A stretch of DNA of 64,000 nt from an uncultured delta proteobacterium (lineage in GTDB: Bacteria > Myxococcota_A > Polyangia > Polyangiales > Polyangiaceae), in assembly GCA_963782055.1 (NCBI GenBank), contig CAWAIF010000003.1:768001-832000 (forward strand), given 5' to 3'. The notes below the pieces were generated by a model. It searched no databases and was not told the origin of the DNA. It saw only the letters and a program-made list of their open reading frames with translations. Shown here piece by piece: positions 11,301 to 36,977 of the stretch. Position numbers and translations under genes: made by a program. Within the stretch, counting starts at the first letter, position 1. Each line of letters begins with the position of its first letter.

Positions 11301-11331
11301 TTTGGAGCGGCTTGCGCGCCTCCAGCTCGGG

Positions 11332-11793: not shown

Positions 11794-11797
11794 CTCG

Positions 11798-12712: not shown

Positions 12713-13930
12713 CTAGCGTGTACTCGACTTGGTGCCGCCGGTGACGCCGACGACGAGGAGCGCGGCCAGGAACGCGGCGGCGCCGGCGGCGACGCCCTGC
12801 ACGACGGCGTAGGGCACGAGCGTCAGGTGCGGCTCGCCGTGCAGGGCGTAGCCGGCGAAGGCGGCGGCGAGCGACACGACGACCGCGGTGAGCCACGGGC
12901 GGAAGCGGTACATGAGCAGCGCGGGCACGAAGCCGATGAGCGCGGCGACGGCGGGGTAGACCAGCTCGAGGTGCGTGCCGAAGACGGGCAGCGGGCCGCT
13001 CCGGGCGAGGAGCTTCGCGCCCTCGGCGGCGAGCTTGGCGGCGCCCAGGCCGGCGCCGACGAAGAGGATCATGTAGCCGAAGGCGGTGAGCCCGGCGCGC
13101 GTGGTGAACCGGCTGGGCGCGGGCGCCTTCTTCTTCGCCGGCGCCTTCCTCGCGGCGGGCTTCGCCCGCGCCTCCTCCCCCTCGGGCGCGTCCGCCTCCG
13201 CCTCGTCGGCGCGCGCCGCGGTCGCCTTGCCGCGCGCGCCGGGCGCGGGCATCGGCCCGGACGTCGACGGCGGCGCGTCGCCCACCGTCATCACCATCGG
13301 CGGCGGCGTGCCGGAGGGCACCACCTCCGAGATGGACGGGCGCGTCTTCAGCCCCTGCCCGTGCGCGCGCGCGCGTCGCAGGTAGAGCTCGCGCTCCTCG
13401 GTGGACACGGTGGGATCGTCGGCGAGGAGGACGGCGTGGCGCACGCTCCCCATCTCGGCGAGGGCGCGCGCGTACCCCGGGCTGTCCGGCGCGTCGGTCA
13501 CCCCCGCGCTGCGCGCCGCGCTGCGGTACCACACGTCGGCCTTGTCGGCGTCGGCGCCGTAGTGCACGCCCAGCTCGTAGAGGTTGGCCAGGTAGACCTT
13601 CGCCTCGACGAAGCCGCCGTCGGCCGCGGCGCGCAGGTGCGCGGCGCCCTCCTTCAGGTCCTGCGGGACGACGCCGCCCGCCAGGTGGAAGAGCGCCAGC
13701 GCGTACTCCGCCTCCGGGCTGCCCAGCTTGGCCGCCGTCGCGTACGTCTCGTAGCACCGCCGCAGGTCCTTCGGCTGGCCGTGCAGGCCGCCGCGGAAGG
13801 CCCTGGCGAGGAGCAGCAGACCCTCGACGTCGCCGGCGCGCTCCAGGTCCTCGCGCGTGCCGAGCTCGACTTCCCCCTCTTCCTCGGGGAGGTCTTCCTC
13901 TTGCTCGCCTTCAGGACGCCGGGCCGCCAT
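12713..13930 (-). CDS. Sel1-repeat protein with C-terminal multi-TM domain, copy 1
   Basis: A.Y.LA..H..G.VVPQDLKEG...LRAAA.GG..EA...LA.LY..G Sel1 repeats; about 4 hydrophobic helices. Confidence 0.85.
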   Translation of the reverse strand: MAARRPEGEQEEDLPEEEGEVELGTREDLERAGDVEGLLLLARAFRGGLHGQPKDLRRCYETYATAAKLGSPEAEYALALFHLAGGVVPQDLKEGAAHLRAAADGGFVEAKVYLANLYELGVHYGADADKADVWYRSAARSAGVTDAPDSPGYARALAEMGSVRHAVLLADDPTVSTEERELYLRRARAHGQGLKTRPSISEVVPSGTPPPMVMTVGDAPPSTSGPMPAPGARGKATAARADEAEADAPEGEEARAKPAARKAPAKKKAPAPSRFTTRAGLTAFGYMILFVGAGLGAAKLAAEGAKLLARSGPLPVFGTHLELVYPAVAALIGFVPALLMYRFRPWLTAVVVSLAAAFAGYALHGEPHLTLVPYAVVQGVAAGAAAFLAALLVVGVTGGTKSSTR

Positions 13931-15632
13931 GGGCTCTCTCCACCTCGGCGAGCACCGCCAGCAGCCGGCGGGTGCGCGGCTCGTCGGCGGGAGGCCTGGG
14001 GGAGCTGCCGCGGTTCTTCAGGTAGAACTCGCCCAGGTGCTCGGCCCAGGTGCGGTACTTGCGGCGGCCGGCGAAGATGATCTCCACGTCCGCCGCGGGG
14101 GTGGACTCGTCGGCGTCGAAGTCGACGTTGCTCCAGTCGATGGCGTCGCCCGGCTGGCCGGGTCGGCCGATCTCTTCGGCGTAGCTGAGACGCACCGGCG
14201 GCGCGGGCGTGGTGCGCTCGCCGTCGACCAGCAGGCCCACCATCGCGTCGGTCACCTTCACCTGCAGGATGCGAGCGACCAGGCGGAAGCTCACCGTGCT
14301 GCGTGAGAAGTACGGGTAGATGGCGGCGCCCACGATGGGCAGCACCTGCCGGGAGGTGCACACCTCCCGCACGAAGCCGTCCACCATCGCCTGCGGGAGG
14401 GCGAGGTCGGACTCGCGGAGTCGCTCGCTCGCCGTCTGCATCCACCACTTGAGGGTGTGCACCAGCACGCGCTTGACCTTGTCGCTCGCCTTGATCGACA
14501 TGGGCGCCACCTGCGACCACGCCCGGCGCACCTCGTCCTCCAGGGCGTCCTCGTCGGCCACGAAGCGGCGCACCAGGTCGCCGAAGACGGCGCCGCTCGC
14601 CCGGCGTCGCATCTCGCGGTCGACCGCCTCCACCAGCGCGCGCGCGCTCGCCTCGATGCGCTCGCGCTCCTCCGCCTCGTCCTTCGAGGGCGTGAGGGCG
14701 CGCAGCACGCTGACCAGCTCGCCGTGGATGGCCCTCGCCTCCGCCTCCAGCTCGCGGGCCTTCACGTCGTCCTGCATCTTGTCGCGCAGGGCGGTGCAGA
14801 GGAGGGGCACGCCGCTGCGCGGCAGGCCGTCGTCGCTGGTGCCCTCGACGGCCGCCCACTTCGCCTCGAACCGGGCGATGTGTCGCTGCACGGCGCGCGA
14901 CTGCATGTAGCCGGTCTTCACCACGTCGTAGTCGGGGTCGGTGGGCTTGAGCGTCGTCATCTGGTCCGCGTAGGGGTTGCGGACCCAGAACATGTTGGCG
15001 AAGGGGCGGCTCTTGGCCCCCCAGTTGTAGAGCCAGGAGGACGCGCCGCGCGCCCAGAACTCGACGCACGCCTCCTGCACGCGCGAGTCCCAGCGATCAC
15101 GCGCGTTGTCGCTCCGCAGCGCGCTCAGGCTCATGTCGTACTTGGTCAGCGCGACGAAGAGGCTGGGGCGCTCCACGTCGCCGGCGAGCGTGGGGGTGGG
15201 GGAGCCGTGGCGGATGCGCAGCCAGCTCTCCACCTGCGACTGCATCTGGATCGCCTCCGGCTTCGTCGGGCCGGGCGAGCAGAGCACCAGCGCGGTGATC
15301 TCCCGGTCGAGGGAGAACTGCTCGAAGAGGTAGGTGAGCTTGCCGCGCTTGTAGACCTCGATGGCGTTGTCCATCTGGCCGGTGGACAGCTCCGCCTGGC
15401 CGAAGCCGTTGATGCCCTTGAGGGCGCGGCCGCCGGGGAAGTCGAGCAGATCGCACATCTCCAGCAGGGAGCCCTTCGCGCGGGCGAGCTGCAGGCGGAT
15501 CTCGGCGATGAGGCCGGCGAGGACGCCGGGGGCGATCTGCGACTCGCGCGCGCCGCCGGCGGGGCGCACGCGCATCATGCCGCCGCCCTTGCCCATCGCG
15601 TTGAGGCAGGCGGCGTCGATGATGGTGGTCAT
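13911..15632 (-). pseudogene. N-terminally truncated SrfC-like GTPase (C-terminal ~570 aa); frame still open
   Basis: Matches the C-terminal two-thirds of 25555-28086; cut at the duplication junction; lacks the Walker A; in-frame ATG at 15632. Confidence 0.85.
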
Positions 15633-16790: not shown

Positions 16791-16803
16791 GCCCGGCGAT
16801 CGT

Positions 16804-17256: not shown

Positions 17257-17383
17257 CGCTCCTCCGATGGATGCTCCGGACGGGCTGCCAGTTGCAGCGG
17301 AGCTCGTGCGGACGCGGGCCAGGCGCCCGGAGACCGATCCTGGATTGTCGCTCGCCCGGAGGATTCCGGCCATAATGTCCTGC

Positions 17384-19449: not shown

Positions 19450-19501
19450 GAGGAGCGTCCTTGTACGAGGGAGGCCTACCGGTCCTTCCCAGGCTGGAAG
19501 G

Positions 19502-20941
19502 TCAATGAAAGGCCCACTCGGGGGCCGCGTCGCACGAGACGAGCGGGATGGTGGAGGCGACGCCGTCGTTCACGAAGTCCTGCTGGATGTCGGCGAGCGT
19601 CTCGCTGCCGCCGCTGATCGGGAGGGTGGTCTCGGTGTCGGCCAGGCTCTTCGCCTCGCCGCACGCGTCGACGGTCGTGTAGGCGCGGTCGTCGCCGATG
19701 GCGGCGACGAGGTCCGGCGCGCCGTAGAACGCCTGGCCGGACACGGTGGTGAGCATCACGTCGGCGGGGCCGGCGTCGATGAGGGCGCGGTAGGGGTGCG
19801 TCACGTCCCCGCGCACGACGACGAGGTCGGCGAAGAGGCCCTTGCGGATGGATCCGATCTTGTCGTCCATCGCCACCGTCTTCGCGGGGTTGATGGTCAC
19901 CATGTTGACGAGCTGCCGGTCGGTGATGAGGCCGGCGAAGCGCTCGCGGTTGACGCGGTCGGCGACCTTCAGCTCCGCGAGGACGTTGGCGCTGCCGGAG
20001 GGCGACCAGTCGGGGGCAATGGAGACGGTGATGCCGTCGGCGAGGGCGGTGGGGATGTCGGTCGTCTGCCCGTAGAGCGCCAGGTTGGAGAGGGGCGACC
20101 AGACGATCTTCATGCCGGCCTGGCCCATCTTCGCGAGGCGCGGGGCGTCGAGGGCCGTCGCGTGGATGGCCACCACCTGCGGTTTGACCAGGCCGATCTG
20201 CTCGAGGTAGTCGAACTCGGCGCGGGAGGAGTCGTCGGTGCCCTCGGCGAGGTGGATGAAGAACGCCTTGGTCTTCCCGTTCGCGAACTGCGCGTTGAGC
20301 GCGTCGGCGTCCGATTGCTTCAGCGCCGTCACGGGCAGGACGTCCTGGCGGATCTCGTCCTTGCAGAAGTTCTTGAACTCCACGTTGCGCACCCACGAGC
20401 GCGTGCAGGTGAGATCCGCCGACCCCTGGATGGTGGTGGTGCCGCCGGCGAGGGCGCGGAACTCGCCGTACTTCACCGCCTCGCACATGTGGTGGGCCTT
20501 CTTGACTGCGTTGTATGGCGCCTTCACCGCGGCGGAGTACGCGCTGGCGCGCGCCCACTGGTAGCGGTCGCTCCAGCGCCGGCCGGAGTTCCAGAAGGGG
20601 ATGAAGTCGTAGGCGACGTGGTTGTGGAGGTCGATGAGGCCCGGCGCGATGACGCCGCCGGTCTCGATGATCTTCGCGTCGGACGGGACATCGGCGACGT
20701 CGGTCACCACGCCGGTGATGTGCTCGGCGGAGACGACGACGTACGCGGTCTCGGGGCCGTCGGGCAGCAGGGCGGTGCCGTGAAGGGCGTAGGTGGGGCC
20801 CGCGATGGCGGTGCAGCCGGTCTGGTAGGACGACGACGACTGCGAGTCATCGGCGGTGGTCTCGCCACCTGCCGACGAGCAGGCGGCCGACGCGAGGCAC
20901 ACCGCGGCCATCAGCGCGGCCGCGCGAACGAACGTACGCAT
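19502..20941 (-). CDS. Amidohydrolase-superfamily lipoprotein, copy 2
   Basis: Same motifs; 5' part identical to copy 1, 3' part diverged. Confidence 0.88.
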   Translation of the reverse strand: MRTFVRAAALMAAVCLASAACSSAGGETTADDSQSSSSYQTGCTAIAGPTYALHGTALLPDGPETAYVVVSAEHITGVVTDVADVPSDAKIIETGGVIAPGLIDLHNHVAYDFIPFWNSGRRWSDRYQWARASAYSAAVKAPYNAVKKAHHMCEAVKYGEFRALAGGTTTIQGSADLTCTRSWVRNVEFKNFCKDEIRQDVLPVTALKQSDADALNAQFANGKTKAFFIHLAEGTDDSSRAEFDYLEQIGLVKPQVVAIHATALDAPRLAKMGQAGMKIVWSPLSNLALYGQTTDIPTALADGITVSIAPDWSPSGSANVLAELKVADRVNRERFAGLITDRQLVNMVTINPAKTVAMDDKIGSIRKGLFADLVVVRGDVTHPYRALIDAGPADVMLTTVSGQAFYGAPDLVAAIGDDRAYTTVDACGEAKSLADTETTLPISGGSETLADIQQDFVNDGVASTIPLVSCDAAPEWAFH

Positions 20942-21087
20942 CGAGAAGCTCCTTCTTGGGGCGGAACGCGCCGCGCGCCCGGGACCCGGGGCGGTGCGTT
21001 CGTGGAAGTGGCGGCGCGTGTGGCCGCGATGGTTCCGATGTACGCGGCTGTCGTCGGGAAGTTTCCCTCCCGGTGCGCGAGGGGGCG

Positions 21088-21588
21088 CTACCGTCCTCGC
21101 GCCTTCCGACGTGGCGTGCCCGGCGTGACGCGTGGGCGTTCGCCGCTGACCGCTCTTGGTGCCTGCACTGCGCCGCCAGCCATGGCGACGCACTCGCGCA
21201 AGAGCCGTGCGCTTGCGATGTCGAGGCTGCGGTCGCCGGTCTTCTGCACGAGGTTGTGCACGTGAGTGTCGAGGGTGAGGCGGGAGATACCCATCTCGGC
21301 TGCCATCTCGGAACGATCCACACCGAGCGCGCTGCGCTCGAGCAGCTGCCGCTCGCGTACCGTGAGCTGGTACTGGCGTGCCCACCCGAGCGCCATCTCG
21401 AGGATCCCGGCACCATCGGGGAGACCCGGATCGACGATCACGGCGCACCACGCGTCGTGGCCACCCAGCCGCCTGCGTCCGTCCCGCACAAGACGGCAGT
21501 GCGTGACGCTACCGTAGGGCCGCAAGAGGCGCGTCAAGGCCGACACGACAAGACCGTCGTCCTCGACGAGGAGGAAGCCCGCACCCAT
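21088..21588 (-). pseudogene. Response regulator with an in-frame 61-aa deletion in the receiver domain
   Basis: 183 bp (10525-10707 of copy 1) missing at 21412/21413, CA microhomology; the Thr and Lys-Pro receiver motifs are lost, the HTH is intact. Confidence 0.85.
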
Positions 21589-21789
21589 GAGGCAAGGTTA
21601 CCCCCCCCCCGGGACGACCGTCCAGTCCCGTCGCACAGGCCCCGCAGGGCAAGACGCGGCAGGCGCAGTGGTAGGGCGCCTGGTCGCTGTGCCACCCGCA
21701 GTGCTCCCATAGTCCACTTTCGGGATGGATGTATGAGAGGGCGCATCAAATACGCTGCAACCCGCCATCTGGTGCGTACCGGGCTTGGA

Positions 21790-22005
21790 CGGCGTGGTCG
21801 CAGTCGGCCACGGCCCCAAGACGGGATCGCAGCACTCTCCGACGTAGCCCCGGTCCGCCCCGCCCCGACCTTTGAGGCCGATCCATCTCCTTGGAAGGCG
21901 TCGTCGACGTTGCCGCCGCCTCGTCCCCAGATCCTTCCCCCCGCACGTGGCGGCAGTGAGCAGCAGCCCGCCGGCCGCCGCGGCGAGGAGGGAGAGGAGC
22001 AGGGA
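21790..22005 (-). pseudogene. Degenerate Cys-rich lipoprotein paralogue fragment, copy 2
   Basis: Near-identical to 11085-11300. Confidence 0.6.
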
Positions 22006-22036
22006 TCTGGAGCGGCTTGCGCGCCTCCAGCTCGGG

Positions 22037-22492
22037 TCAGTGGCCCGGTCCGTAGCCGTCGCAGGTGACGCCTGGGTGCGCGTCACCGATGTTGGGGCAG
22101 CAACTGGTGGTGCCCACGGGGGGGCAACACGCCCAGACGGAGGGGTAAACAGCCACGTCCCATGCGCAGTGCGCGAGCCAGTGGGGACCGCCCTCCTCGT
22201 CTGGCGGCCAGAGCCCGCAGTAGATTCTTCGCCAGCCGCCATCGGCGTAGTAGGGCATGTGCGCGTCGTGATCGCAGTCGGCCACGGGCCCGAGGACGGG
22301 ATCGCAGCACTCTCCGACGTAGGCGCCGTCGCCCCCGTCCGTCGACCCGTCCCCGTGGAGGGCGGCGTCGACGTCGTCGCCGCCTTCCGCCCCGAAGAGC
22401 CGCCCCCCGCACGCGGCGACCGAGAGCAACGAGCCGGCGGCCGCCGCAGCCAGGAGGGAGACGAGCACGAGTCTGGAAGGTGTTGCATTCAT
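22037..22492 (-). CDS. Small Cys-rich lipoprotein, copy 2
   Basis: Homologous to 11332-11793, with a 6-bp deletion and a few substitutions. Confidence 0.7.
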   Translation of the reverse strand: MNATPSRLVLVSLLAAAAAGSLLSVAACGGRLFGAEGGDDVDAALHGDGSTDGGDGAYVGECCDPVLGPVADCDHDAHMPYYADGGWRRIYCGLWPPDEEGGPHWLAHCAWDVAVYPSVWACCPPVGTTSCCPNIGDAHPGVTCDGYGPGH

Positions 22493-22496
22493 CTCG

Positions 22497-24236
22497 TCAC
22501 GGAGGGGCGATGCTGGAGACGTGCATCACGCTGTGGCCGGAGGTCCAGTCGCCGCTGAAGTCGAGCCACCAGAGCCCGCCATTGGCCGAGATGGAGTTGT
22601 GCCGTCCGAGGACGTCCCAGTCGAAGCCGTTGTTGATGGGGACGCCCAGCAACGTAGCAGGCGCGGGTGGGACGGGCCAGATGCGGCCGAGGGACGGCCC
22701 CGAGAGGAAGCCCGGGTTTGCGACGGTGAACTGCGATGCAGTGACGCCGTACACCCCGCTCGGCTGGTTCTGGTGGGTGGAGTCCTCGATGGAGTCCACC
22801 CACGCCAAGCCGACCGAGCCGGTGCCGTAGCCCGTCCAGAAGTGATCGGCGGCCAGCGCCGGCAGGAACTGATCCTGCGGAGGGTTGCCGGGCTGGGTGC
22901 TGTGGTCGGAGTGAAAGACGGGCACAGGTCCGATGTAACCGGGCGCCGAGGGGAAGGTGAAGGCGTTCGACTCGATGTAGGTGCCCGGGATGGGGCCGTA
23001 GGTGTGGTTCCACACGGCGACCGCGTCGATCACCGAGCTGGTGTTGTGGTCGAAGGCGAGCTGCGACCGCGCGTCGTTGACGTAGCTCGCGTCACCGGGG
23101 AAGAAGCCGACGCACGTGGGCCACGGATCGTTCGTGGCGTGGGAATCGGGGAGCTGGTACCAGTGCAGGCCGTAGTCGTAGCTGACGGCCCCCTTCCATC
23201 GCTGGTTGAGCAGCACCTGTCCGCCGGTGGTGCAGTCGACGTGCAGCGTATCCTGGCCCCCCGTGTCGGTCGCGTTGACCGCAGGCCACTGCACCATCAC
23301 GAAGGGATTTCTCGATGGCGGGTTCTGCACCAGCCCGGAGACGATGCTCATGTTGTAGATGGTGCCGGTGAAGATGGGCCCTCCGGTGGAGTAGTAGGCC
23401 TGCTGGGCGAGGTCGATGTCGCGGGGTTCCGTGACCAGCGACCAGGCACCGGTCACCGGGTCCTGGGCGTAGCTGACGATCTGGAACCAGCGGTGACCGC
23501 CGAACGTCCAGGTCACGAAGATGTCGTTCGTTCCGGTGTCGTGGTGGTAGAAGTAGACGCCGTTGTTGCGGTCGGGGAGGTACGAGGCTGCCGCCGCCAG
23601 ATCGTCCAGCCCGATCTGGCCGGCGGATGTACCGGCGTCGTCCGTGGGGACGAGGTGCGGATCGTGCCACGTGACGCCACCGTCGGTGGACAGCACGATC
23701 GCCACGTACTTGTACTCGCAGGGGCACGCCCCGGGGATGCCGGCGCCCCGCCCCACCTGCGCGAGCAGCGCGATGGTGTTGGACTGGTCGGGATCACCGA
23801 CCGGGAGGAGGACGGGCTCCTTGCTGTACACCATCTCGTCGTTCGGATGGAGCTCGGTCCAGCGTGGGGGCGTCCCGGTGATGGCCGTCGTGAGCTCGAC
23901 GGCGGCCCCGCCGTTGTTCACGCTCACCGGGTTGAACCCGCACTGGTTCCCGACGAGGATGCGGACGGGCTGGTCGTTGGTGTGGGTCGACTCCTCCTCC
24001 CAGGCGGTGGTCGTCCGGAAGCCCTGGGGACACGTGGAGTCAGCGACCGTGATGGTCGACGACGTGGCAAAGTGGTTTTGTCCGCCGCCCGAGCCGAAGC
24101 CCGGGACGTTGGTGTACGTCGAGGCTGTCACCGAGTTCAGCGCCTCGGATGACGTGCTCACCGCCTCGTCGTCAACCGCGCACGCCGCCAGCACCGCGGC
24201 CAGGGTGGCGATGGCCGCCAGACTCAGTCGTTTCAT
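22497..24236 (-). CDS. Lipoprotein with Asp-box/BNR repeats (beta-propeller, sialidase-like fold), 579 aa
   Basis: AAGGAGG RBS; lipobox LAAC; STDGGVTW and SYDYGLHW Asp-boxes. Confidence 0.8.
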   Translation of the reverse strand: MKRLSLAAIATLAAVLAACAVDDEAVSTSSEALNSVTASTYTNVPGFGSGGGQNHFATSSTITVADSTCPQGFRTTTAWEEESTHTNDQPVRILVGNQCGFNPVSVNNGGAAVELTTAITGTPPRWTELHPNDEMVYSKEPVLLPVGDPDQSNTIALLAQVGRGAGIPGACPCEYKYVAIVLSTDGGVTWHDPHLVPTDDAGTSAGQIGLDDLAAAASYLPDRNNGVYFYHHDTGTNDIFVTWTFGGHRWFQIVSYAQDPVTGAWSLVTEPRDIDLAQQAYYSTGGPIFTGTIYNMSIVSGLVQNPPSRNPFVMVQWPAVNATDTGGQDTLHVDCTTGGQVLLNQRWKGAVSYDYGLHWYQLPDSHATNDPWPTCVGFFPGDASYVNDARSQLAFDHNTSSVIDAVAVWNHTYGPIPGTYIESNAFTFPSAPGYIGPVPVFHSDHSTQPGNPPQDQFLPALAADHFWTGYGTGSVGLAWVDSIEDSTHQNQPSGVYGVTASQFTVANPGFLSGPSLGRIWPVPPAPATLLGVPINNGFDWDVLGRHNSISANGGLWWLDFSGDWTSGHSVMHVSSIAPP

Positions 24237-24392
24237 GCGAACCTCCTTCGCCCGACGTCGCAGCCGGAGCTCGCCAGTGCCTGGCCCGCCACCGACTGCC
24301 TGCCTCGCCGTGCACCAACGACGCTACGCGGATCCCGTCATTCGTAAATACAAGCGAGCTTGTATGTTACCGATGGGGAAGCGATCTACAGA

Positions 24393-25574
24393 CTAGCGTG
24401 TACTCGACTTGGTGCCGCCGGTGACGCCGACGAAGAGGAGCGCGGCCAGGAACGCCGCGGCGCCGGCGGCGACGCCCTGCACGACGGCGTACGGCACGAG
24501 CGTCAGGTGCGGCTCGCCGTGCAGGGCGTAGCCGGCGAAGGCGGCGGCGAGCGACACGACGACCGCGGTGAGCCACGGGCGGAAGCGGTACATGAGCAGC
24601 GCGGGCACGAAGCCGATGAGCGCGGCGACGGCGGGGTAGACCAGCTCGAGGTGCGTGCCGAAGACGGGCAGCGGGCCGCTCCGGGCGAGGAGCTTCGCGC
24701 CCTCGGCGGCGAGCTTGGCGGCGCCCAGGCCGGCGCCGACGAAGAGGACCATGTAGCCGAAGGCGGTGAGCCCAGCGCGCGTGGTGAAGCGGCTGGGCGC
24801 CTTCTTCTTCACAACACGCTTCGCCGGCGCCGCGGCCTCGTCCGCGGCGCCGGTGCGCGCCGCGGTCGCCTTGCCGCGCGGGCCGGGCGCGGGCATCGGT
24901 CCGGAGGTCGACGGCGGCGCGTCGCCCACCGCGACCACCATGGGTGGCGGCGTGCTGGAGGGCACCACCTCCGAGATGGACGGTCGTGTCTTGAGCCCCT
25001 GCCCGTGCGCGCGGGCGCGTCGCAGGTAGTGCTCGCGGTCCGCGGCGGACACCGCGGGATCGTCGGCGAGGAGCAGGGCATGCCTCACGCTCCCCATCTC
25101 GGCGAGGGCGCGCGCGTACTCCGGGCTCTCCGGTGCGTCGGTCACCCCCGCGCTGCGCGCGGCGCTGCGGTACCACACGTCGGCCTTGTCGGCGTCGGCG
25201 CCGTAGTGCACGCCCAGCTCGTAGAGGTTGGCGAGGTAGACCTTCGCCTCCACGAACCCGCCGTCGGCGGAGGCGCGCAGGTGCGCGGCGCCCTCCTTCA
25301 GGTCCTGCGGGACGACGCCGCCGGCGAGGTGGAAGAGGGCGAGGGCGTACTCCGCCTCCGGGCTGCCCAGCTTCGCCGCGGCGGCGTACGCCTCGTAGCA
25401 CCGGCGAAGGTCCTTCGGCTGGCCGTGCAGGCCGCCGCGGAAGGCCCTGGCGAGGAGCAGCAGACCCTCGACGTCGCCGGCGCGCTCCAGGTCCTCGCGC
25501 GTGCCGAGCTCGACTTCCCCCTCTGCCTCGGGGAGGTCTTCCTCTTGCTCGCCTTCAGGACGCGGGGCCGCCAT
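24393..25574 (-). CDS. Sel1-repeat protein with C-terminal multi-TM domain, copy 2
   Basis: Sel1 repeats; start overlaps the SrfC-like stop by 20 bp. Confidence 0.85.
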   Translation of the reverse strand: MAAPRPEGEQEEDLPEAEGEVELGTREDLERAGDVEGLLLLARAFRGGLHGQPKDLRRCYEAYAAAAKLGSPEAEYALALFHLAGGVVPQDLKEGAAHLRASADGGFVEAKVYLANLYELGVHYGADADKADVWYRSAARSAGVTDAPESPEYARALAEMGSVRHALLLADDPAVSAADREHYLRRARAHGQGLKTRPSISEVVPSSTPPPMVVAVGDAPPSTSGPMPAPGPRGKATAARTGAADEAAAPAKRVVKKKAPSRFTTRAGLTAFGYMVLFVGAGLGAAKLAAEGAKLLARSGPLPVFGTHLELVYPAVAALIGFVPALLMYRFRPWLTAVVVSLAAAFAGYALHGEPHLTLVPYAVVQGVAAGAAAFLAALLFVGVTGGTKSSTR

Positions 25575-28086
25575 GGGCTCTCTCCACCTCGGCGAGCACC
25601 GCCAGCAGCCGGCGGGTGCGCGGCTCGTCGGCGGGCGGCCTGGGGGAGCTGCCGCGGTTCTTCAGGTAGAACTCGCCCAGGTGCTCGGCCCAGGTGCGGT
25701 ACCTGCGCCGGCCCGCGAAGATGATCTCCACGTCCGCGGCGGGGGTGGACTCGTCGGCGTCGAAGTCGACGTTGCTCCAGTCGATGGCGTCGCCCGGCTG
25801 GCCGGGCCGGCCGAGCTCCTCGGCGTAGCTGAGCCGCACCGGCGGCGTCGGGGTGGCGCGCTCGCCCGTCTCCAGCAGGCCCACCATGGCGTCGGTGACC
25901 TTCACCTGCAGGATGCGCGCGACCAGACGGAAGCTCACCGTGCTGCGGGAGAAGTACGGGTAGATGGCGGTGCCCAGGATGGGCAGCACCTGCCGCGAGG
26001 TGCACACCTCCCGCACGAAGCCGTCCACCATCGCCTGGGGGAGCGCGAGGTCGGACTCGCGGATGCGCTCGCTCGCGGTCTGCATCCACCACTTGAGGGT
26101 GTGCACCAGCACGCGCTTGACCTTGTCGCTCGCCTTGATGGACATGGGCGCCACCTGCGACCACGCGCGGCGCACCTCGTCCTCCAGCTCGTCGTCGTCC
26201 GCCACGAAGCGGCGCACCAGATCGCCGAAGACGGCGCCGCTCGCCCGGCGGCGCATCTCGCGGTCGACCGCCTCCACCAGCTCGCGCGCGCTCGCCGCGA
26301 TGCGCTCGCGCTCCTCCGCCTCGTCGCGCGAGGGCGTGAGGGAGCGCAGCACGTTGACCAGCTCGCCGTGGATGGCCTTGCCCTCCGCCTCCAGCTCGCG
26401 GGCCTTCACGTCGTCCTGCATCTTGTCGCGCAGGGCGGTGCAGAGGAGGGGCACGCCGCTGCGCGGCAGGCCATCGTCGCCGGCGCCCTCCACCGCCGCC
26501 CACTTCGCCTCGAAGCGGGCGATGTGCCGCTGCACCGCGCGCGACTGCATGTAGCCGGTCTTGACCACGTCGTAGTCGGGCTCGGCCGGCTTCAGCGTCG
26601 TCATCTGGTCGGCGTAGGGGTTTCTGACCCAGAACATGTTGGCGAAGGGGCGGCTCTTGGCCCCCCAGTTGTAGAGCCACGACGAGGCGCCGCGCGCCCA
26701 GAACTCCACGCACGCCTCCTGCACGCGCGAGTCCCAGCGGTCGCGCGCGTTGTCGCTGCGCAGCGCGCCGAGGCTCATGTCGTACTTCGTCAGCGCGACG
26801 AAGAGGCTGGGTCGCTCCACGTCGCCGGCGAGGGTGGGGGTGGGGGAGCCGTGGCGGATGCGCAGCCAGCTCTCCACCTGCGACTGCATCTGGATGGCCT
26901 CCGGCTTCGTCGGACCGGGGGAGCAGAGGACCAGGGCGGTGATCTCGCGGTCCAGCGAGTACTGCTCGAAGAGGTAGGTGAGCTTGCCGCGCTTGTAGAC
27001 CTCGATGGCGTTGTCCATCTGGCCGGTGGACAGCTCCGCCTGGCCGAAGCCGTTGATGCCCTTGAGGGCGCGGCCGCCGGGGAAGTCGAGCAGATCGCAC
27101 ATCTCCAGCAGGGAGCCCTTCGCGCGGGCGAGCTGCAGGCGGATCTCGGCGATGAGGCCGGCGAGGACGCCGGGGGCGATCTGCGACTCGCGCGCGCCGC
27201 CGGCGGGGCGCACGCGCATCATGCCGCCGCCCTTGCCCATCGCGTTGAGGCAGGCGGCGTCGATGATGCTGGTGCCCTCGCTGGACGCGCGCACGTGCTC
27301 CAGACCGACCTCCACCACCTCGGCGTCGCCGACGGCCTCCAGGCCCTGGCAGAGCAGGCGCAGCACCTGATCGAGGTCCGGCGCGTGGCCGGGGCCGCCC
27401 CAGAGCAGGGAGAAGACGAGCTGCCAGCCGGCGACCGAGGCGATGTCCTTCTTCCACGCGTCGCTCTTGAGGGCCGTGCGGGCGCGGAGCTCGTTCAGGT
27501 AGGGGTGGCGGTCCTGGTACTTCTTGTTCAGGCCGTGCCAGACGGCGTCCCACGCGGCGCGGTAGGCGGGCGGGGCAGCCGCGCCGGAGAGGAGGCGCGC
27601 GTCGCGCAGGCACTTCTCCACGCGATCGCTGGCGATGCTGGGGGAGGTGCACTCGACGAGGAAGCCGGTGGCGAGCGACTCCAGCACGCCCTCGAGTGAG
27701 AGGAGCTGGCAGAGAAAACCGCTCTGCACCGGCTCCGCCGGGTCGTGAGTGGAGAAGCGGGTGACGACGCCGGTGGACTCCACGCCCTTGGCCGGGTTGA
27801 TCTCCTTCAGGAAGTCGATCTGCCGGCCGCCGCAGCGCACCTCCAGGGTGCCGAGCTCGTGGGAGAGGATGGCACCGACCAGGAAGGACTTGCCCGCCTG
27901 CGAAGGGCCGAAGAGGCCGAGCGCCTGCGGACGGCCGCTGGCGCGCGCGAGCTTGCGCACGCGCACCGAGAGATCGTGCAGGACGTGAGACTCCGCCTGG
28001 TGCTCGCCGTCGCCGCCGGGAAGCGCGAGCGCCTGGGCGGCGTCGGAGACGCCCTGAGAGAGTGCGTGAAGCGTGCTCGGGTCCAT
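25555..28086 (-). CDS. SrfC-like ('putative virulence factor') P-loop GTPase, dynamin-like motif set, 843 aa
   Basis: GLFGPSQAGKS (G1), NP..GVESTGVVTRFS (G2), LLDFPG (G3), KRGKLTYLFEQY, LTKYD (G4): the SrfC family pattern as I recall it. Confidence 0.8.
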   Translation of the reverse strand: MDPSTLHALSQGVSDAAQALALPGGDGEHQAESHVLHDLSVRVRKLARASGRPQALGLFGPSQAGKSFLVGAILSHELGTLEVRCGGRQIDFLKEINPAKGVESTGVVTRFSTHDPAEPVQSGFLCQLLSLEGVLESLATGFLVECTSPSIASDRVEKCLRDARLLSGAAAPPAYRAAWDAVWHGLNKKYQDRHPYLNELRARTALKSDAWKKDIASVAGWQLVFSLLWGGPGHAPDLDQVLRLLCQGLEAVGDAEVVEVGLEHVRASSEGTSIIDAACLNAMGKGGGMMRVRPAGGARESQIAPGVLAGLIAEIRLQLARAKGSLLEMCDLLDFPGGRALKGINGFGQAELSTGQMDNAIEVYKRGKLTYLFEQYSLDREITALVLCSPGPTKPEAIQMQSQVESWLRIRHGSPTPTLAGDVERPSLFVALTKYDMSLGALRSDNARDRWDSRVQEACVEFWARGASSWLYNWGAKSRPFANMFWVRNPYADQMTTLKPAEPDYDVVKTGYMQSRAVQRHIARFEAKWAAVEGAGDDGLPRSGVPLLCTALRDKMQDDVKARELEAEGKAIHGELVNVLRSLTPSRDEAEERERIAASARELVEAVDREMRRRASGAVFGDLVRRFVADDDELEDEVRRAWSQVAPMSIKASDKVKRVLVHTLKWWMQTASERIRESDLALPQAMVDGFVREVCTSRQVLPILGTAIYPYFSRSTVSFRLVARILQVKVTDAMVGLLETGERATPTPPVRLSYAEELGRPGQPGDAIDWSNVDFDADESTPAADVEIIFAGRRRYRTWAEHLGEFYLKNRGSSPRPPADEPRTRRLLAVLAEVERAHGGPAS

Positions 28087-28106
28087 CCGGCGCTCATCCT
28101 ACTGCA

Positions 28107-29327
28107 TCAGAAGGGGTGCCAGCCCCCCGCCTTGTCCATCCACTCGACGTGCACGCCCTGGAAGCTGCCGCCCGGCTTGAGCGTCACCACGTAGGTGTTG
28201 CCCGCGCCGCCGGGGGGCGTGGTGGCGGCCACCAGCGCCTGGCCCTGCGTGACCCTCCACCGCACGGCATCCGGTCGGAAGTGCGTGCGCGTCGGCGCCG
28301 CCGTCCCGGCGCCAATCCCGCCGCCCGTGACGACGACGGTGCCGGTCCCCATGCCGGTGCCGGTGCCCGTGCCCAGCTCGCCGCCGTCCCCCGCGGCCTC
28401 TCCGTCCCCCGCGGCCTCGGCATCGCCCCCGGCGGCGCCGTCGTCGCTGGCGTCTGCCGCCGCACCACCGTCACCCGCCATCGCCGCGGCGTCCGCGCTC
28501 GCCGCGCCATCGGCCGCGGCACCATCGGCGACGGCGCCGTCGGCGTGGGCCGCGCCGTCGGCGGCTGCCGCGTCGGCTGCCGGCTCCGGCGCGAGGCCTC
28601 CGCACGAGCGGAGCAGCCACGCCAGGCCGATGAGCACCGCCATCGCGAAGAGACCGGAGAGGATCCAGAGCCACCACGGCAGGATCTTCTTCTCCCCGTG
28701 CTCCGGCGGCTTCTCCTCTTCCTTCTGCTCCTCTTCTTCCTTCTTCTCCTCCGCCCGCTTCTCTTGCGGGGGGACGGCGGCGGTCTCCGTCGCGGGAGCG
28801 GCGGCAGCAACGGCGGCGGCGGCCGCGGCTGCAGCGGCCGTCTCGGCGCTGCCGAGCTTCGTCCAGTCGACCCAGCCGAAGACACGCACCTCCTGCCCGG
28901 CGAGGGTGCGCGGCGAGGCCCCCCAGTGGATGGCGAGGACCTTCTTCTGCACGGGATCGAAGTAGTAGTGCTCCTCCTCGTTCTCCGCCGCGGAGCCCGG
29001 CTGCAGGCCGGCGGGGAAGGTGAGGGCGTCCTTGAACTTGCGGTAGCCGGAGTCCTCCCGCCCGAGCTCCTCGGCGGTGCGCTCCAGGCACTTGACGAAG
29101 TCGCCCACCGCCGCCTCGACCTCGGCCGGGTGCTGCGCGCGGGCGTCGCGGAGCGGAACGAGTCCTTCCAGGTCCCAGATCACGCGGGAGGGGAGGCTGT
29201 CGGCCCCTTCGGTCTCGGGGACGAGGAGGCGACCGTCGAAGAACTGCGGCTGGTTGAGGTCCGGCGCGAGCTTCCAGATGGAGACGCCGCCGACGAGGTT
29301 GGGAAGCCAGGTCGCCTTGTCGTTCAC
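28107..29327 (-). CDS. SrfA-like single-pass membrane protein, 406 aa
   Basis: N-domain ending ALTFP..YY..VLAIHWG, charged linker, WWLWIL..WLLRSC TM, Ala/Asp/Gly linker; directly upstream of the SrfC-like gene. Confidence 0.6.
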   Translation of the reverse strand: MNDKATWLPNLVGGVSIWKLAPDLNQPQFFDGRLLVPETEGADSLPSRVIWDLEGLVPLRDARAQHPAEVEAAVGDFVKCLERTAEELGREDSGYRKFKDALTFPAGLQPGSAAENEEEHYYFDPVQKKVLAIHWGASPRTLAGQEVRVFGWVDWTKLGSAETAAAAAAAAAVAAAAPATETAAVPPQEKRAEEKKEEEEQKEEEKPPEHGEKKILPWWLWILSGLFAMAVLIGLAWLLRSCGGLAPEPAADAAAADGAAHADGAVADGAAADGAASADAAAMAGDGGAAADASDDGAAGGDAEAAGDGEAAGDGGELGTGTGTGMGTGTVVVTGGGIGAGTAAPTRTHFRPDAVRWRVTQGQALVAATTPPGGAGNTYVVTLKPGGSFQGVHVEWMDKAGGWHPF

Positions 29328-29995
29328 GTTCGCACCAGCGCGCGCGAGCGCACCATCCCGGTGGCGGTGATCCGGCAGAGGAAGCTCTTCGGCACGACGG
29401 CCTTGGACTTCGGGTCGGAACCGGGCTCGCGCTCGTGGAGCTGGGAGTCGAACACCTGGGTGTGGTCCACGCTCTCCAGGCGCAGGCGCGGGAGCTCGCT
29501 GGACATGAGGGTGGCGAGGAGCGGGGCGATCACCGCGACGTTGGCGCGGTCGGCGTTGCGGTCCTCTGCGAAGGCGTAAAAGAGGCGGCTGGAGGCCAGG
29601 CCCACCTGCATGCGCAGGTCTTCGTCGATGGGGGCGCGGAAGAAGAAGTTGAGGGCGGCCGCCAGGGTGAAGCCGGCGTCCTCGTCGAGCTGCTCGGCGA
29701 GCTCGCCGAAGAAGAGGCGGAGGGGGAAGGCCTTGTCCGCCGGTCGCGCGCCGAGGATGTCGTCGCCGAGGATGTCGCCCAGCACGAGCCGGGAGAGGAC
29801 GGAGTCGGTCAGGCGGCTGGCGCTTCGTGGCGCCGCGGGCACCGCGGAGAGGCGCTCCGGCGAGCCGGTGGCGACGGTGGGGGCGGGCGTGTCGACGCGG
29901 CCGAGGCGCGCGTCGACCGCTGCACGGAGGGTGTCCTTGTCGGTGGAAGCGACGAGGGCGTCGAGGACTGCGCCGAGGAGGTCAGGGCGGCTCAC
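29324..29995 (-). CDS. Hypothetical protein with a GrpE-like C-terminal beta-domain, 223 aa
   Basis: GTGA overlap with the SrfA-like gene; C-terminus VFDSQLHE..V...F......VRSRALV resembles GrpE FDPxxHE..RxAxV. Confidence 0.6.
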   Translation of the reverse strand: MSRPDLLGAVLDALVASTDKDTLRAAVDARLGRVDTPAPTVATGSPERLSAVPAAPRSASRLTDSVLSRLVLGDILGDDILGARPADKAFPLRLFFGELAEQLDEDAGFTLAAALNFFFRAPIDEDLRMQVGLASSRLFYAFAEDRNADRANVAVIAPLLATLMSSELPRLRLESVDHTQVFDSQLHEREPGSDPKSKAVVPKSFLCRITATGMVRSRALVRT

Positions 29996-30061: not shown

Positions 30062-30616
30062 TCATCTAGCCGGCGGACGCGCCGGGAACGGCTTCATCAC
30101 GCGATCGACCACGCCCCGGACGCGCGCGTCATCGGGCTTCTGCGGGTCGATCTCGGTGGTCGCGGCGCCGTGCCAGACCTGACCCCCGGTCCTGTCCAGG
30201 ACGTCGATGACGATGCCGCCTTCGACCGCGCTGCGCGTCTCGTCTCCATCCCCCCCGCGCGCCGTCACGCGCCACGAGCGCCCCACGACGGTCTCCACGT
30301 CTCGCCGGCCCGCCGAGCACAGGATGACCAGCTCGCCCTGACCCGGCGGCGCGAGCACGTAGCCCTTCTGCTCGAGCGCCTGCGTGATGGACGCCTTCAT
30401 CAGGTCGATGACGTGAGCGGAGCGCGGTGACTGCGGGTAGTCGCTGAGCGCGCGCTGGTGGTAGGCCGAGGCTCCCGTCGTGGGCGCGAAGGAGAACGTG
30501 CGGTAGTGCACGATCGGCGCGGTCTCGAGCGAGGTCGTTTGAACATCGGTCGGCGGCGCGCACGCCGCGCCTCCCAGCGCGAGCAGACCGGCGAGGACGG
30601 AGACGACCGGCTTCAT
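30062..30616 (-). CDS. DUF4136-family lipoprotein
   Basis: Lipobox GAAC; YRTFSF, I.QAL..KGY, EGGIVIDVLD...VWHG, FP C-terminus. Confidence 0.8.
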   Translation of the reverse strand: MKPVVSVLAGLLALGGAACAPPTDVQTTSLETAPIVHYRTFSFAPTTGASAYHQRALSDYPQSPRSAHVIDLMKASITQALEQKGYVLAPPGQGELVILCSAGRRDVETVVGRSWRVTARGGDGDETRSAVEGGIVIDVLDRTGGQVWHGAATTEIDPQKPDDARVRGVVDRVMKPFPARPPAR

Positions 30617-30708
30617 GCGATGACCGGCTGCATCCGTCATGCCGCGGCGCCGCAGGACGTCCCGACCGCGCGCTCGTGGCACCGGCACACGAAAAGAACG
30701 GCGGCCGC

Positions 30709-30736
30709 GCACGAGACGCACGAGACGCACGAGACG
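30709..30736. repeat. 9-bp tandem repeat (GCACGAGAC)x3
   Basis: Read directly in the divergent intergenic region. Confidence 0.85.
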
Positions 30737-30928
30737 TGAAGACCGGCGATTGCGGCACCGGACTTCTGCGCGATGCAAGGCGTGCTCACGTCGCGCACGC
30801 GCCGCGGCGCTACGCGTCTCTCGCTCGTCGCTGCCTCCTCCGAAATGTCGATGGACCGCCTGTTGCTTGGGGGACCGCGACCGTCCGCACGCCGCGGCAA
30901 CAGTGCGAAAGGGACAGGGAGGTTCGAC

Positions 30929-33283
30929 ATGGCCATCAAAGAGTACAAGCCTGGAAGCGCGTTTCCCGGTGTGATCGGGCGGACCTTCGACGTCTCCAGC
31001 CCGGCGTGGCCCATGCCGCGGCGGGCGAAGGCGGGCGCGCCGAACGTGCTGTTTCTGGTGCTGGACGACACCGGCTTCGGACAGCTGGGCTGTTATGGAA
31101 GCCCCATCTCCACGCCGAACATCGACGCCCTCGCGAAGAACGGGCTGTTCTTCAACAACATGCACACGACCGCGCTCTGCTCGCCGACGCGCACGTGCAT
31201 CATCACCGGGCGCAACCACCACTCCAACGCGATGTCGTGCATCACCGAGGGCTCCACCGGATATCCCGGCGCCAACGGGTACATCCCCTTCGAGAACGGG
31301 TTCCTCTCCGAGATCCTCCTGGAGCACGGCTACAACACCTTCGCGCTCGGCAAGTGGCACCTGACGCCGGCGGATCAGCTGTCGGCGGCCGGCCCCTACG
31401 ACCGCTGGCCGCTCGGCCGGGGCTTCGAGCGCTACTACGGCTTCCTCGGCGGCGACACGCACCAGTACTACCCCGAGCTCGTCTACGACAACCACACCGT
31501 GGAGCCGGAGAAGACGCCCAAGGAGGGCTACCACCTGACCGTGGATCTGGTGGACAAGGCCATCGGCTTCATCGCCGACGCCAAGCAGATCGCTCCGGAC
31601 AAGCCCTTCTTCCTGTACTTCTGCCCCGGCGCCACGCACGCGCCGCACCACGTCCCCAAGGAGTGGGCCGACAGGTACAAGGGCAAGTTCGACGCCGGCT
31701 GGGACGCGTATCGCGAGAAGACCTTCGCGCGGCAGAAGGAGCTCGGCGTCGTCCCGAAGGACGCGGTGCTCTCGCGGCACGACCCGGACGTCCCCGACTG
31801 GGAGACGCTGTCGGCGGACGAGAAGAAGCTCTACGCGCGCATGATGGAGGTGTTCGCGGGCTTCCTCACCCACACCGACTTCCACGTCGGGCGGCTGTTC
31901 GAGTTCCTCAAGTCGATCGGCGAGTGGGAAAACACGCTGATCATGCTCATCTCCGACAACGGCGCGAGCTCCGAAGGCGGGCCCACGGGCTCGGTCAACG
32001 AGAACAAGTTCTTCAACAACATCCCCGACTCCCTGCAGGAGAACCTGCGGAAGATCGACGAGCTCGGCGGACCGTCGACGTTCAATCACTACGCCTGGGG
32101 GTGGACCTTCGCCGGGAACACGCCCTTCCGGCGCTGGAAGCGTGAGACCTACCGCGGCGGCGTCAGTGATCCGTTCATCGTCCACTGGCCGAAGGGCATC
32201 AAGGCGAAGGGCGAGCTGCGCACGCAGTACGCGCACGCGATCGACATGGTCCCGACGGTGCTCGAGCTGCTGGACATCGAAGCCCCGCAGTCCATCCGGG
32301 GCGTCACGCAGTCGCCCATCCAGGGACACAGCTTCGCCCAGGCGCTCGATGACGCGAAGACGCCCACGAAGCACCTCACCCAGTACTTCGAGATGATGGG
32401 GCACCGCGCCATCTACCACGAGGGATGGCGCGCGGTGTGCCCGTGGCCGGGGACGTCCTTCAAGGAATCCGGGATGTTCTTCGGCGCCCCGATCGACAAG
32501 GACAAGCTGGCCGAGCTCGATGCGAAGAGCTGGGAGCTGTATCACATCGACGAGGACTTCGCGGAGAACCACGACGTCGCCGCCAAGAACCGCCAGAAGC
32601 TGATCGAGATGATCGCGACATGGTACGTCGAGGCGGGCAAGTACGATGTCCTCCCCATCGACTCGCGAGGCACGCTCCGCTTCGCCGACCCGCGGCCGCA
32701 GCTCGCGACCGATCGCACCAGCTACACCTACTACCCCGGCACGCAGATGGTCCCCACCAACGCGGCGGCCAAGGTGCTCAATCGGCCCCACAGCATCACG
32801 GCCGACGTGGAGATCCCCGAGGGGGGAGCGGACGGCGTGCTGCTCTCTGCGGGAGACGTGCAGGGCGGCTTCTCGTTCTACGTGCAGCACGGCAAGCTGC
32901 AGTACGTCTACAGCTACGTCGGCAGCAGCTTCTCCCACGTCGTCGCGACGGTTCCCGTCCCGGAGGGGCGCCACAAGCTGCGCTTCGAGTTCGAGGTGAC
33001 CGGCAAGCCCGACATCCCCCACGGCAAGGGCGCGCCGGGGCGTGGCCTGCTCTACATCGACGGCAAGCTCGTCGGCCAGGGCGACATCCCGCTCACCATG
33101 CCGCTCTCCCTCGGGCTCGGCGGAGGCTTCGTCTGCGGTGCCGACAGCGGCTCGCCGGTCTGGACGGAGTACCAGCCGCCGTTCAAGTTCAGCGGCACGC
33201 TCCACAGCGTGACCGTCGACGTGAGCGGAGAGCTCATCGAGGACGCCGAGCACGCGATGAAGGTGATCCTCGCGCGGCAGTAG
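30929..33283 (+). CDS. Arylsulfatase (Cys-type, formylglycine-dependent) with a C-terminal beta domain
   Basis: GGAGG RBS; PNVL..VLDD, CSPTR..ITGR, GKWH, SDNG motifs. Confidence 0.93.
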   Translation: MAIKEYKPGSAFPGVIGRTFDVSSPAWPMPRRAKAGAPNVLFLVLDDTGFGQLGCYGSPISTPNIDALAKNGLFFNNMHTTALCSPTRTCIITGRNHHSNAMSCITEGSTGYPGANGYIPFENGFLSEILLEHGYNTFALGKWHLTPADQLSAAGPYDRWPLGRGFERYYGFLGGDTHQYYPELVYDNHTVEPEKTPKEGYHLTVDLVDKAIGFIADAKQIAPDKPFFLYFCPGATHAPHHVPKEWADRYKGKFDAGWDAYREKTFARQKELGVVPKDAVLSRHDPDVPDWETLSADEKKLYARMMEVFAGFLTHTDFHVGRLFEFLKSIGEWENTLIMLISDNGASSEGGPTGSVNENKFFNNIPDSLQENLRKIDELGGPSTFNHYAWGWTFAGNTPFRRWKRETYRGGVSDPFIVHWPKGIKAKGELRTQYAHAIDMVPTVLELLDIEAPQSIRGVTQSPIQGHSFAQALDDAKTPTKHLTQYFEMMGHRAIYHEGWRAVCPWPGTSFKESGMFFGAPIDKDKLAELDAKSWELYHIDEDFAENHDVAAKNRQKLIEMIATWYVEAGKYDVLPIDSRGTLRFADPRPQLATDRTSYTYYPGTQMVPTNAAAKVLNRPHSITADVEIPEGGADGVLLSAGDVQGGFSFYVQHGKLQYVYSYVGSSFSHVVATVPVPEGRHKLRFEFEVTGKPDIPHGKGAPGRGLLYIDGKLVGQGDIPLTMPLSLGLGGGFVCGADSGSPVWTEYQPPFKFSGTLHSVTVDVSGELIEDAEHAMKVILARQ

Positions 33284-33597
33284 CGCGCGCGCAGCTCAGC
33301 GCACGCTCTCGCGCAGGTGAACCAGGGTCTGGTCCGCGTCGTCCACGCGGATCCTCCGAGCCTCCGGACGCGCGCGTCATGGTGTGGCCCGCACCGTCCG
33401 CGCCGCGAACGAACCCGCTGCGGGGCGCTCCGCTGCGGTCGGAATATTGGGCGCACCCGCCTCGCGCGTCGCGTCGATCCGCGGTGGTCAGGCGCTTGCA
33501 AGACGGACCGGCGCGCGATCGCGTTGGAGGGCAGCGAGGTGCAGGTTCTTCACCGGGCGACCAAGGCGTTCTGCTGGCGAGACGAAGGAGGTGCACC

Positions 33598-33732
33598 GTG
33601 AGCACGGTGGGTGACGCGACGAGGGGAGCGGTGAGCGTTCCGGGCGAGGAGCACCACGACGGCGCGACGCTCGCGGTCGTCTTGATGCTGCTGGGCGTCT
33701 TCGCCTTCACCGCCCCGGTGGCGTCGCTCTGA
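33598..33732 (+). CDS. Putative 44-aa single-TM peptide
   Basis: AAGGAGG 6 nt before the GTG; hydrophobic C-terminal half; ends 7 nt before the channel gene. Confidence 0.4.
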   Translation: MSTVGDATRGAVSVPGEEHHDGATLAVVLMLLGVFAFTAPVASL

Positions 33733-33739
33733 GGCGACC

Positions 33740-34864: not shown

Positions 34865-35161
34865 CTCCTCGCCGCACGGGTGGTGTGCTCGTCGTGGCGT
34901 CGGTGCTCGCCCTCTGTTGCCCCGCGCGCGCCTCGGCGGGCCTCGTCGCAGAACGACGTGGAGCTCGTCGGCGGGGACCCTGGCGTTCGCGGGAGCGGGT
35001 TCTCGTTGGAGGGGCGATGGTGCTCGGCTCGGTGTTCGCCGCGCGACGCGTCGCGCTCTGGGCCCAGTGCGACGCCGTCTGGCCGCTCGGCGTGCCGGCG
35101 CCATGTCCGCCGGGCTTCGCCAGCGGACGGCGGCGCTCTGAGACTGCGGTCGAGCCGAACG

Positions 35162-36664: not shown

Positions 36665-36977
36665 GAGGTCCTCGTCGGAGCGGCAACTTAGAGCCGATCG
36701 GTCGGGTGCACCACCGCCGTTGGATGCGCTTCAACAATTCTTCATCTCCCGCGTGCCGCTGTCTGAAAACCGACGGGCCGCCGGGTGGCTCGGCGGACGC
36801 GTGGCGCGGCGCGGGTGGGCCGACCGTCGCTCCCTCGAGCGGGTAGGGGGCAGTTCATGTGCGCGCTAACGATCTCGCGCGCGGCAGGGATTTCCCGGGG
36901 GACGGGACCCGCGAGGCTGGGGGGCCCGTGGCGGGGCGTCGCCGGCGCGCGCGCGCAGCGCCTCGCGAGGAGGGCCC

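Follow-up and report, generated by a model that had tools for sequence, protein, structure and literature searches.

A stretch of 64,000 nucleotides (nt) from an uncultured myxobacterium of the family Polyangiaceae (positions 768,001 to 832,000 of contig CAWAIF010000003.1; hereafter the window) contains four co-oriented genes which, together with a distant srfB gene on the same contig, make up one conserved five-gene variant of the srfABC system. The five genes are inherited together, the operon is split in the genome under study (G000), and the ATPase and GTPase motifs of the encoded proteins are intact. The system is composed of srfB, a gene here called gene 1, a srfA-like gene (gene 2), srfC and a gene for a Sel1-repeat protein with four transmembrane (TM) segments (Sel1-4TM). 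Coordinates are those of the window unless they are prefixed with C3 or G000:C3.

The four genes are located on the minus strand. Gene 1 (29324..29995) is an open reading frame (ORF) of 223 amino acid residues and gene 2 (28107..29327), which encodes a divergent SrfA-like single-pass membrane protein, has 406 residues; neither product matched a Pfam family above the cut-off. Downstream are srfC (25555..28086), coding for a P-loop GTPase of 843 residues that belongs to PF10139 (E 4.3e-86), and the gene of the Sel1-repeat protein with its four C-terminal hydrophobic segments (24393..25574, 393 residues). Genes 1 and 2 overlap by 4 bp, gene 2 and srfC are separated by a gap of 20 bp, and srfC and the Sel1 gene overlap by 20 bp. 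An earlier sequence-only reading of this DNA had described four co-oriented genes with this spacing and a full set of GTPase motifs in a SrfC-like protein of 843 residues; the ORF calls, the alignments, the Pfam match and the invariance of the motifs all agree with it. The G+C content of the operon is like that of the rest of the window, and the nearest named relatives are records from Labilithrix and other Myxococcales and Polyangiaceae.

The same reading had described the operon as lacking SrfB, which holds only in cis. An intact srfB gene of 918 codons is present in a single copy at G000:C3:927626-930382 (PF07520, E 5.2e-124), on the same contig as the four genes and on the opposite strand, 130,225 nt from gene 1. 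In G000, srfB is not part of the operon that contains srfA and srfC. The linkage of the genes was surveyed in 301 genomes of the family, each at least 85% complete; the conservation counts are descriptive, were not tested statistically and include kin that are not independent. Gene 1 was present in 46 of these genomes and srfC in exactly the same 46. srfB was found in 45 of the carriers of gene 1 and in none of the other genomes, and the srfA-like gene in all 46 carriers and in two orphan genomes. In 41 carriers srfB was directly upstream of gene 1 at a distance of at most 179 nt. The five exceptions were G000 (130 kb), G134 (8 kb), G166 and G191 (srfB on other contigs) and G311, where srfB was not found and gene 1 is about 400 nt away from a contig end in an assembly of 550 contigs.

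The arrangement was also followed in 63 metagenome loci, with duplicates kept and a flank scored only if at least 300 nt of it were present. srfB was upstream of gene 1 in 43 of 46 loci, the two loci L043 and L082 having no srfB directly at this position, and the srfA-like gene was downstream of gene 1 in 51 of 51 loci, showing that the gene order is no chance arrangement. The Sel1 gene followed srfC in 37 of the 40 loci with enough sequence, and tblastn recovered the gene in two of the remaining three. In the five closest genomic loci the order was invariably srfB, gene 1, srfA-like gene, srfC and Sel1 gene. The distances between the proteins track one another from gene to gene (r 0.85-0.97, descriptive only). 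The system was not found in any of the six other genomes of the genus of G000 and was found in 3 of 24 genomes sampled from other families of the same order; in a sample of the phylum, srfC was found in only 3 of 301 genomes, all three within this family.

The remote srfB is cognate to the four genes, since G000 and G134 are sisters in the unrooted FastTree trees of both SrfB (46 rows, support 0.98) and SrfC (38 rows, support 0.999) and since their junctions are shared: G134, G166 and G191 have the same new junctions as G000, with a lipoprotein gene after srfB and a DUF2804 gene before gene 1. The loci L020 and L083 represent one lineage. Because the split is common to the sister genus (g72), it is old and not an assembly error; it predates the divergence from g72, where the amino acid identity is 55-69%. 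A misassembly as the cause was ruled out by the same junctions in G134, G166 and G191, and the idea of one recent inversion in G000 was dropped because the junctions carry no repeat and are identical in these three genomes. According to the sequence-only reading, a linked srfB in the close homologues would make the operon just a broken srfABC. srfB is indeed linked in five of the five closest loci, yet the operon is not a broken srfABC: every gene has been kept in intact form, and g72 has the split too.

Some further observations were made at the junctions. The gene after srfB codes for a Cys-rich predicted lipoprotein (G000:C3:930409-931062), is found at this place only in G000, G134, G166 and G191 and marks the split clade. 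In the window, about 7 kb (30062-36900) with genes for a DUF4136 lipoprotein, a sulfatase, a membrane protein and a TolC-like protein separate gene 1 from the DUF2804 gene, which directly precedes gene 1 in G134, G166 and G191. Independent splits without loss of a gene were seen in G117 (L134, G117:C3), where distances of about 5 and 11 kb separate srfB-gene 1, srfA and srfC, and in G137 (L135, G137:C12), where srfC-Sel1 is 7.5 kb away from srfA.

The structure model of SrfB (predicted local distance difference test score, pLDDT, 82; predicted template modelling score, pTM, 0.81) had DnaK (4b9q) as its best Foldseek match with an E of 3e-18. Part of the model (211-897) was aligned to residues 2-505 of DnaK over 435 residues (Z 21.8; root mean square deviation, rmsd, 7.8), a stretch of DnaK that comprises its ATPase domain and its substrate-binding beta-domain. 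For the ATPase domain by itself the rmsd was about 3.5. FtsA reached a Z of 20 over the ATPase core, without a match to the beta-domain. The residues D217/G219/N220, D470/E471, D512-G514-G515-G516-T517 and G709/R710 were invariant in 46 of 46 rows, and these motifs, which make up an Hsp70-type nucleotide site, also occur in five of five canonical SrfBs. The model has no C-terminal helical lid, as the chain stops about 20 residues past the beta-domain, and an extra N-domain (about 28-203) was left without a match. SrfB further differs from DnaK by large inserts, and the identity is 12-16%. Judged from the model, SrfB very probably consists of an Hsp70 nucleotide-binding domain and a substrate-binding beta-domain, with the extra N-domain and no lid. 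Sequence searches of the PDB with gene 1, SrfB and SrfC returned no solved relative; a hit to SMC1 (E 0.005) was a coiled-coil match and was discarded.

Gene 1 belongs to a narrow family of 64 clusters at 50% identity, of which the last four are spurious or frameshifted. Its confident model (pLDDT 87.6) begins with two short helices, which are followed by a disordered linker, a bundle of four helices and a small C-terminal beta-domain, and the arrangement of the C-terminal 100 residues weakly resembles that of the GrpE head. Foldseek returned the GrpE structure 3a6m at rank 1 with a non-significant E of 0.06, and rank 2 was also a GrpE (E 0.69). Five GrpE entries were aligned to residues 123-223 with a Z of 3.0-4.5, which is below the level that excludes a common arrangement (rmsd 4.1-5.1, 88-93 residues aligned). 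FDxxxHE and a terminal AxV of the consensus are also found in the GrpEs of this order. A cluster look-up gave otherwise unnamed clusters and, as a lead only, a nearest named cluster with GrpE on 34% of its members (score 0.79). When SrfB 206-918 was co-folded with gene 1, the median was 0.00 (runs 0.00, 0.33 and 0.00), which weighs neither way.

Gene 1 is not a member of the GrpE family, and G000 has an ordinary GrpE of its own. Gene 1 is likely the partner of SrfB rather than its substitute, a view drawn from the match of SrfB to DnaK. The shape and the usual place right behind the gene for an Hsp70 fold argue for a GrpE-like working, and we regard the case for gene 1 as a putative single-chain GrpE-type exchange factor of SrfB as evenly balanced. 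The earlier label of gene 1 as GrpE-like stands as far as the weak structural support goes, but not at the level of sequence profiles.

In SrfC, the motifs GPSQAGKS (60-67), ESTG (103-106), DFP (334-336) and TKxD (433-436) did not vary in any of the 38 aligned homologues; G337 was kept in at least 90% of them. T109 (in VVTRF) is a better candidate for G2 than T105, because it is kept in five of five canonical SrfCs and T105 in four of five. A G2-G3 insert of 220 residues and a predicted helical C-terminus complete the protein, and the motifs are common to canonical SrfC. Bacterial dynamin-like proteins (DynA, BDLP1, Cj-DLP1/2, IniA) likewise have the order P-loop, DxxG and TKxD and a long C-terminal region, although they do not have the 220-residue insert. 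The motif order including TKxD, which we take to be a dynamin-type G4, is also the same as in G000's own dynamin-like protein (G4 = TKWD), and the P-loop profile of SrfC scored best against the two dynamin-like proteins of G000 (E 2e-4). On these similarities SrfC is rather more probably than not a dynamin-like oligomerising GTPase. The two ordinary dynamin-like genes of G000 are found elsewhere (G000:C3:2894906 and 3179878). The 393-residue protein matched Sel1 with an E of 7.9e-5, which is under the Pfam cut-off, and its hydrophobic segments follow the Sel1 part at 267-285, 311-329, 333-351 and 364-382.

The product of gene 2 has an N-domain (1-158), a linker, a TM segment at about 220-238 followed by Cys242, a linker rich in Ala, Gly and Asp, and a Cys-free C-domain (345-406). 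The topology predicted from the sequence, with a cytoplasmic N-domain, a linker, one TM segment and a small periplasmic tail, is the layout of SrfA. When the profile of the N-domain was compared with four canonical SrfA N-domains by hhalign, an E of 0.0019 and a P of 14% were obtained, and in the controls the best 3 of 32 proteins all had a SrfA-type N-domain. Against the SrfA family model NF040486 the score was 15.5 bits at a cut-off of 150, covering linker and TM segment only. The FLNGxW motif of the four-Cys lipocalin, or any Cys in the C-domain, was found in none of 67 gene 2 rows, and the FLNGxW four-Cys motif is likewise missing in three of four canonical SrfAs. Gene 2 is probably a divergent SrfA, the sequence match being weak but specific. 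In a preprint, the N-domain of SrfA is described as a non-catalytic kinase-like fold and SrfA as an inner-membrane protein, and an AlphaFold 3 (AF3) model of the canonical trio has SrfA as a membrane-anchored platform that binds SrfB and then SrfC (bioRxiv 10.64898/2026.09.18.752743). By analogy with this published model, the SrfA-like protein is probably the membrane platform for SrfB and SrfC.

Of 67 homologues of gene 2, 66 have retained the Cys just after the TM segment, as have three of four canonical SrfAs, the canonical proteins checked including L129:4510, L130:4362 and L131:4427. An internal lipobox at Cys242 was ruled out, as K or R occupies position -2 in most cases. Two genomes (G258:C69 and G326:C1) have a srfA-like gene of full length but none of the other genes, and six (G076, G081, G137, G169, G193 and G208) have an extra paralogue of the N-domain. 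Some alphaproteobacterial srfABC loci have a second gene with a SrfA-type N-domain upstream of srfA (L129:2615, L131:3501).

The canonical srfABC of Salmonella, Xenorhabdus and Haemophilus is defined by PF07520 for SrfB, PF10139 for SrfC and NF040486 for SrfA. The myxobacterial SrfB and SrfC are true members of these families with the same motifs as the canonical proteins, and there is also a SrfA-like protein with a single TM segment and a probably related N-domain. The canonical order is A-B-C, whereas here it is B-gene 1-A-C-Sel1 with two added conserved genes. The canonical SrfA C-domain is a four-Cys lipocalin, but here it is a short Cys-free domain. A Lol-like ABC/vWA cassette adjoins some canonical loci and was not found here among the flanks of 25 loci (110 ORFs picked, 14 dropped as antisense to core genes, 96 proteins kept), and srfB is unlinked in the clade of G000. 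The system belongs to the srfABC kind by its SrfB and SrfC and has a different order, added genes and a replaced SrfA C-domain. The sequence-only reading had seen a relative of srfABC with a SrfA-like gene 2; both assignments are upheld and are extended by the two extra conserved genes. On a Rahnella plasmid (L133:14108-16370), a canonical srfABC is followed 3 kb further downstream by an hscC gene for an Hsp70 and by a J-domain gene, which may be chance.

We propose that the SrfA-like and the Sel1-4TM proteins would reside in the inner membrane, to which they would bring SrfC and SrfB. SrfC would then assemble on the membrane and bend or seal it using GTP, SrfB would grip the SrfC assembly and remodel or disassemble it using ATP, and gene 1 might reset SrfB through the release of ADP. 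The whole chain, an Hsp70-cycle-coupled and membrane-anchored GTPase machine acting on the inner membrane, is put forward tentatively and at somewhat less than even confidence. Equally tentative is the suggestion that Sel1-4TM may be a second membrane adaptor and that the output may be membrane repair or the formation of vesicles under envelope stress. Bacterial dynamin-like proteins are tied to membrane repair and vesiculation (PMC6104087).

A number of results weigh against such a machine. For gene 1, besides the non-significant Foldseek match, a wide structural search returned the E. coli GrpE with a Z of 4.5 at rank 22 among unrelated helical folds, where nothing stood out (top Z 5.0). Local hhalign of gene 1 against the GrpE profile gave a P of 1.9%, the global profile score of 3.4 equalled that of shuffled controls (3.0 +/- 2.8), and the Pfam GrpE family (PF01025) matched none of 61 members of the gene 1 family. 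The model has no long N-terminal dimerising helix as in GrpE, and none of the operon genes was seen to code for a J-domain protein. No gene 1 homologue turned up among the proteins annotated at five of five canonical srfABC loci, so SrfB does not always need gene 1. In G000 and the sister genus, gene 1 remained with srfA-srfC and away from srfB. For SrfC, the P-loop match to two other GTPases was only modestly worse (E 1e-3 to 4e-3) than that to the dynamin-like proteins, the G3-G4 region had no significant match, and the profile similarity to dynamin-like proteins is confined to the P-loop. Dynamin_N (PF00350) was matched by none of the 38 SrfC members; a search of the G000 genome with it gave four matches, SrfC not among them. 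SrfC is without any hydrophobic segment. Finally, srfC is a single gene, whereas bacterial dynamin-like genes are usually paired (PMC6104087).

The proteins could instead form a trans-envelope sensing switch, in which a cue in the periplasm is picked up by the SrfA-like protein and passed on by the two NTPases to a target in the cytoplasm, without any bending of the membrane. We consider this unlikely. The receptor-like topology of gene 2, with a cytoplasmic N-domain, one TM segment and a small periplasmic domain, would fit, as would the lack of a membrane-inserting segment in SrfC and the kinase-like fold described for the SrfA N-domain in the preprint (bioRxiv 10.64898/2026.09.18.752743). 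However, no recurring output gene such as a regulator, a nuclease or a kinase was found among the 96 flanking proteins of the 25 loci, and the predicted substrate-binding domain of SrfB suggests the remodelling of proteins. Quite unlikely is an anti-phage or anti-predator defence at the membrane, although the occurrence is patchy (46 of 301 family genomes and none of six other genomes of the genus), one canonical locus adjoins BREX genes and 1 of the 25 loci adjoins a hipA toxin-antitoxin pair. PADLOC has no model for the four proteins save a weak match of 45 residues, its matches among the flanking proteins were three generic Ser/Thr kinases and one sigma-54 activator, and the annotated neighbours are mostly housekeeping or metabolic. 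The operon was broken at three different junctions with every gene retained and the protein distances covary between the genes, both of which fit vertical inheritance. The sequence-only reading had named membrane remodelling and anti-phage action as possible functions; the former is a reasonable guess, but the latter finds no support in the neighbours.

An exported tripartite toxin against prey or competitors, as reported for SrfABC of Xenorhabdus, is improbable; myxobacteria are predators, which counts in its favour. SrfABC of X. stockiae has been reported to be cytotoxic to cell lines of insects and mammals (PMC6950479). Against a toxin, gene 2 is membrane-anchored and its 67 rows are without the four-Cys lipocalin domain, the Lol-like cassette of some canonical loci was not among the flanking proteins, and the putative dedicated exchange factor and the 4-TM partner suggest a machine that stays in the cytoplasm. 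That the genes are the remnant of a decaying srfABC operon is highly improbable. The separation of srfB, the failure to find the system in the six other genomes of the genus and the truncated srfC copy nearby could be read in this way, but the five genes are full-length with intact invariant motifs and the split is older than the divergence from g72. Least probable of all, and scarcely to be entertained, is the version of the sequence-only reading, a four-gene module with a GrpE-like protein in place of SrfB. It could draw on the absence of srfB within 130 kb of the genes in G000 and on L043 and L082, which also have no adjacent srfB. The two proteins occur together in 45 of the 46 carrier genomes and their genes are adjacent in 41, the sole miss being G311 near its contig end, and for G000 the replacement is refuted by the intact srfB.

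The srfABC genes are widespread and annotated as a virulence factor. A 2025 review has SrfB and SrfC without an ascribed function (PMC11942329), and none of the papers listed in searches of the open-access literature, subscription papers being outside its scope, described SrfB as Hsp70-like, SrfC as dynamin-like or this myxobacterial variant. That free-living myxobacteria inherit the five genes vertically as a set speaks for a basic role in the envelope. SrfB as a predicted lidless Hsp70 with a candidate exchange factor leads to directly testable biochemistry. A wider and rather unlikely extension of the GTPase machine is that the srfABC 'virulence factors' in general might be a dedicated Hsp70-plus-dynamin machine for membrane trafficking, the full cycle of which would be seen in this myxobacterial lineage with a lidless Hsp70, a single-chain GrpE-type exchange factor, a pseudokinase as membrane anchor and a Sel1 protein as membrane adaptor. 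In such a machine SrfB, gene 1, the anchor and the Sel1 adaptor would together build and uncoat the GTPase scaffold; if true, the roles of Hsc70 and dynamin in the formation of vesicles would have a parallel in prokaryotes.

The 3' end of the operon is the right end of a tandem duplication of 11 kb (4601-15629 versus 15623-27273), the two copies having a mosaic identity of 79-100% in bins of 400 nt. At the duplication junction there is a second, 5'-truncated copy of srfC (13911..15632, minus strand) which matches from codon 274 and has no P-loop; it is not part of the working operon. A second full-length copy of the Sel1/TM gene (12713..13930, minus strand) lies inside the same duplication. 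In the part of srfC shared by the two copies, 55 synonymous and 24 non-synonymous codon differences were counted, which suggests that the copies diverged under selection, as working alleles. The duplication is likely a strain chimera in the assembly or a recombination with a sister strain. Two DNA sequencing runs with small shares gave short pieces only, none of which spanned the duplication junction. The left copy of a gene for a 579-residue lipoprotein is about 980 nt shorter (12447-12448 versus 23147-24128), and a LuxR-type regulator is shorter in the right copy (21588-21088, 166 residues) than in the left copy (227 residues).

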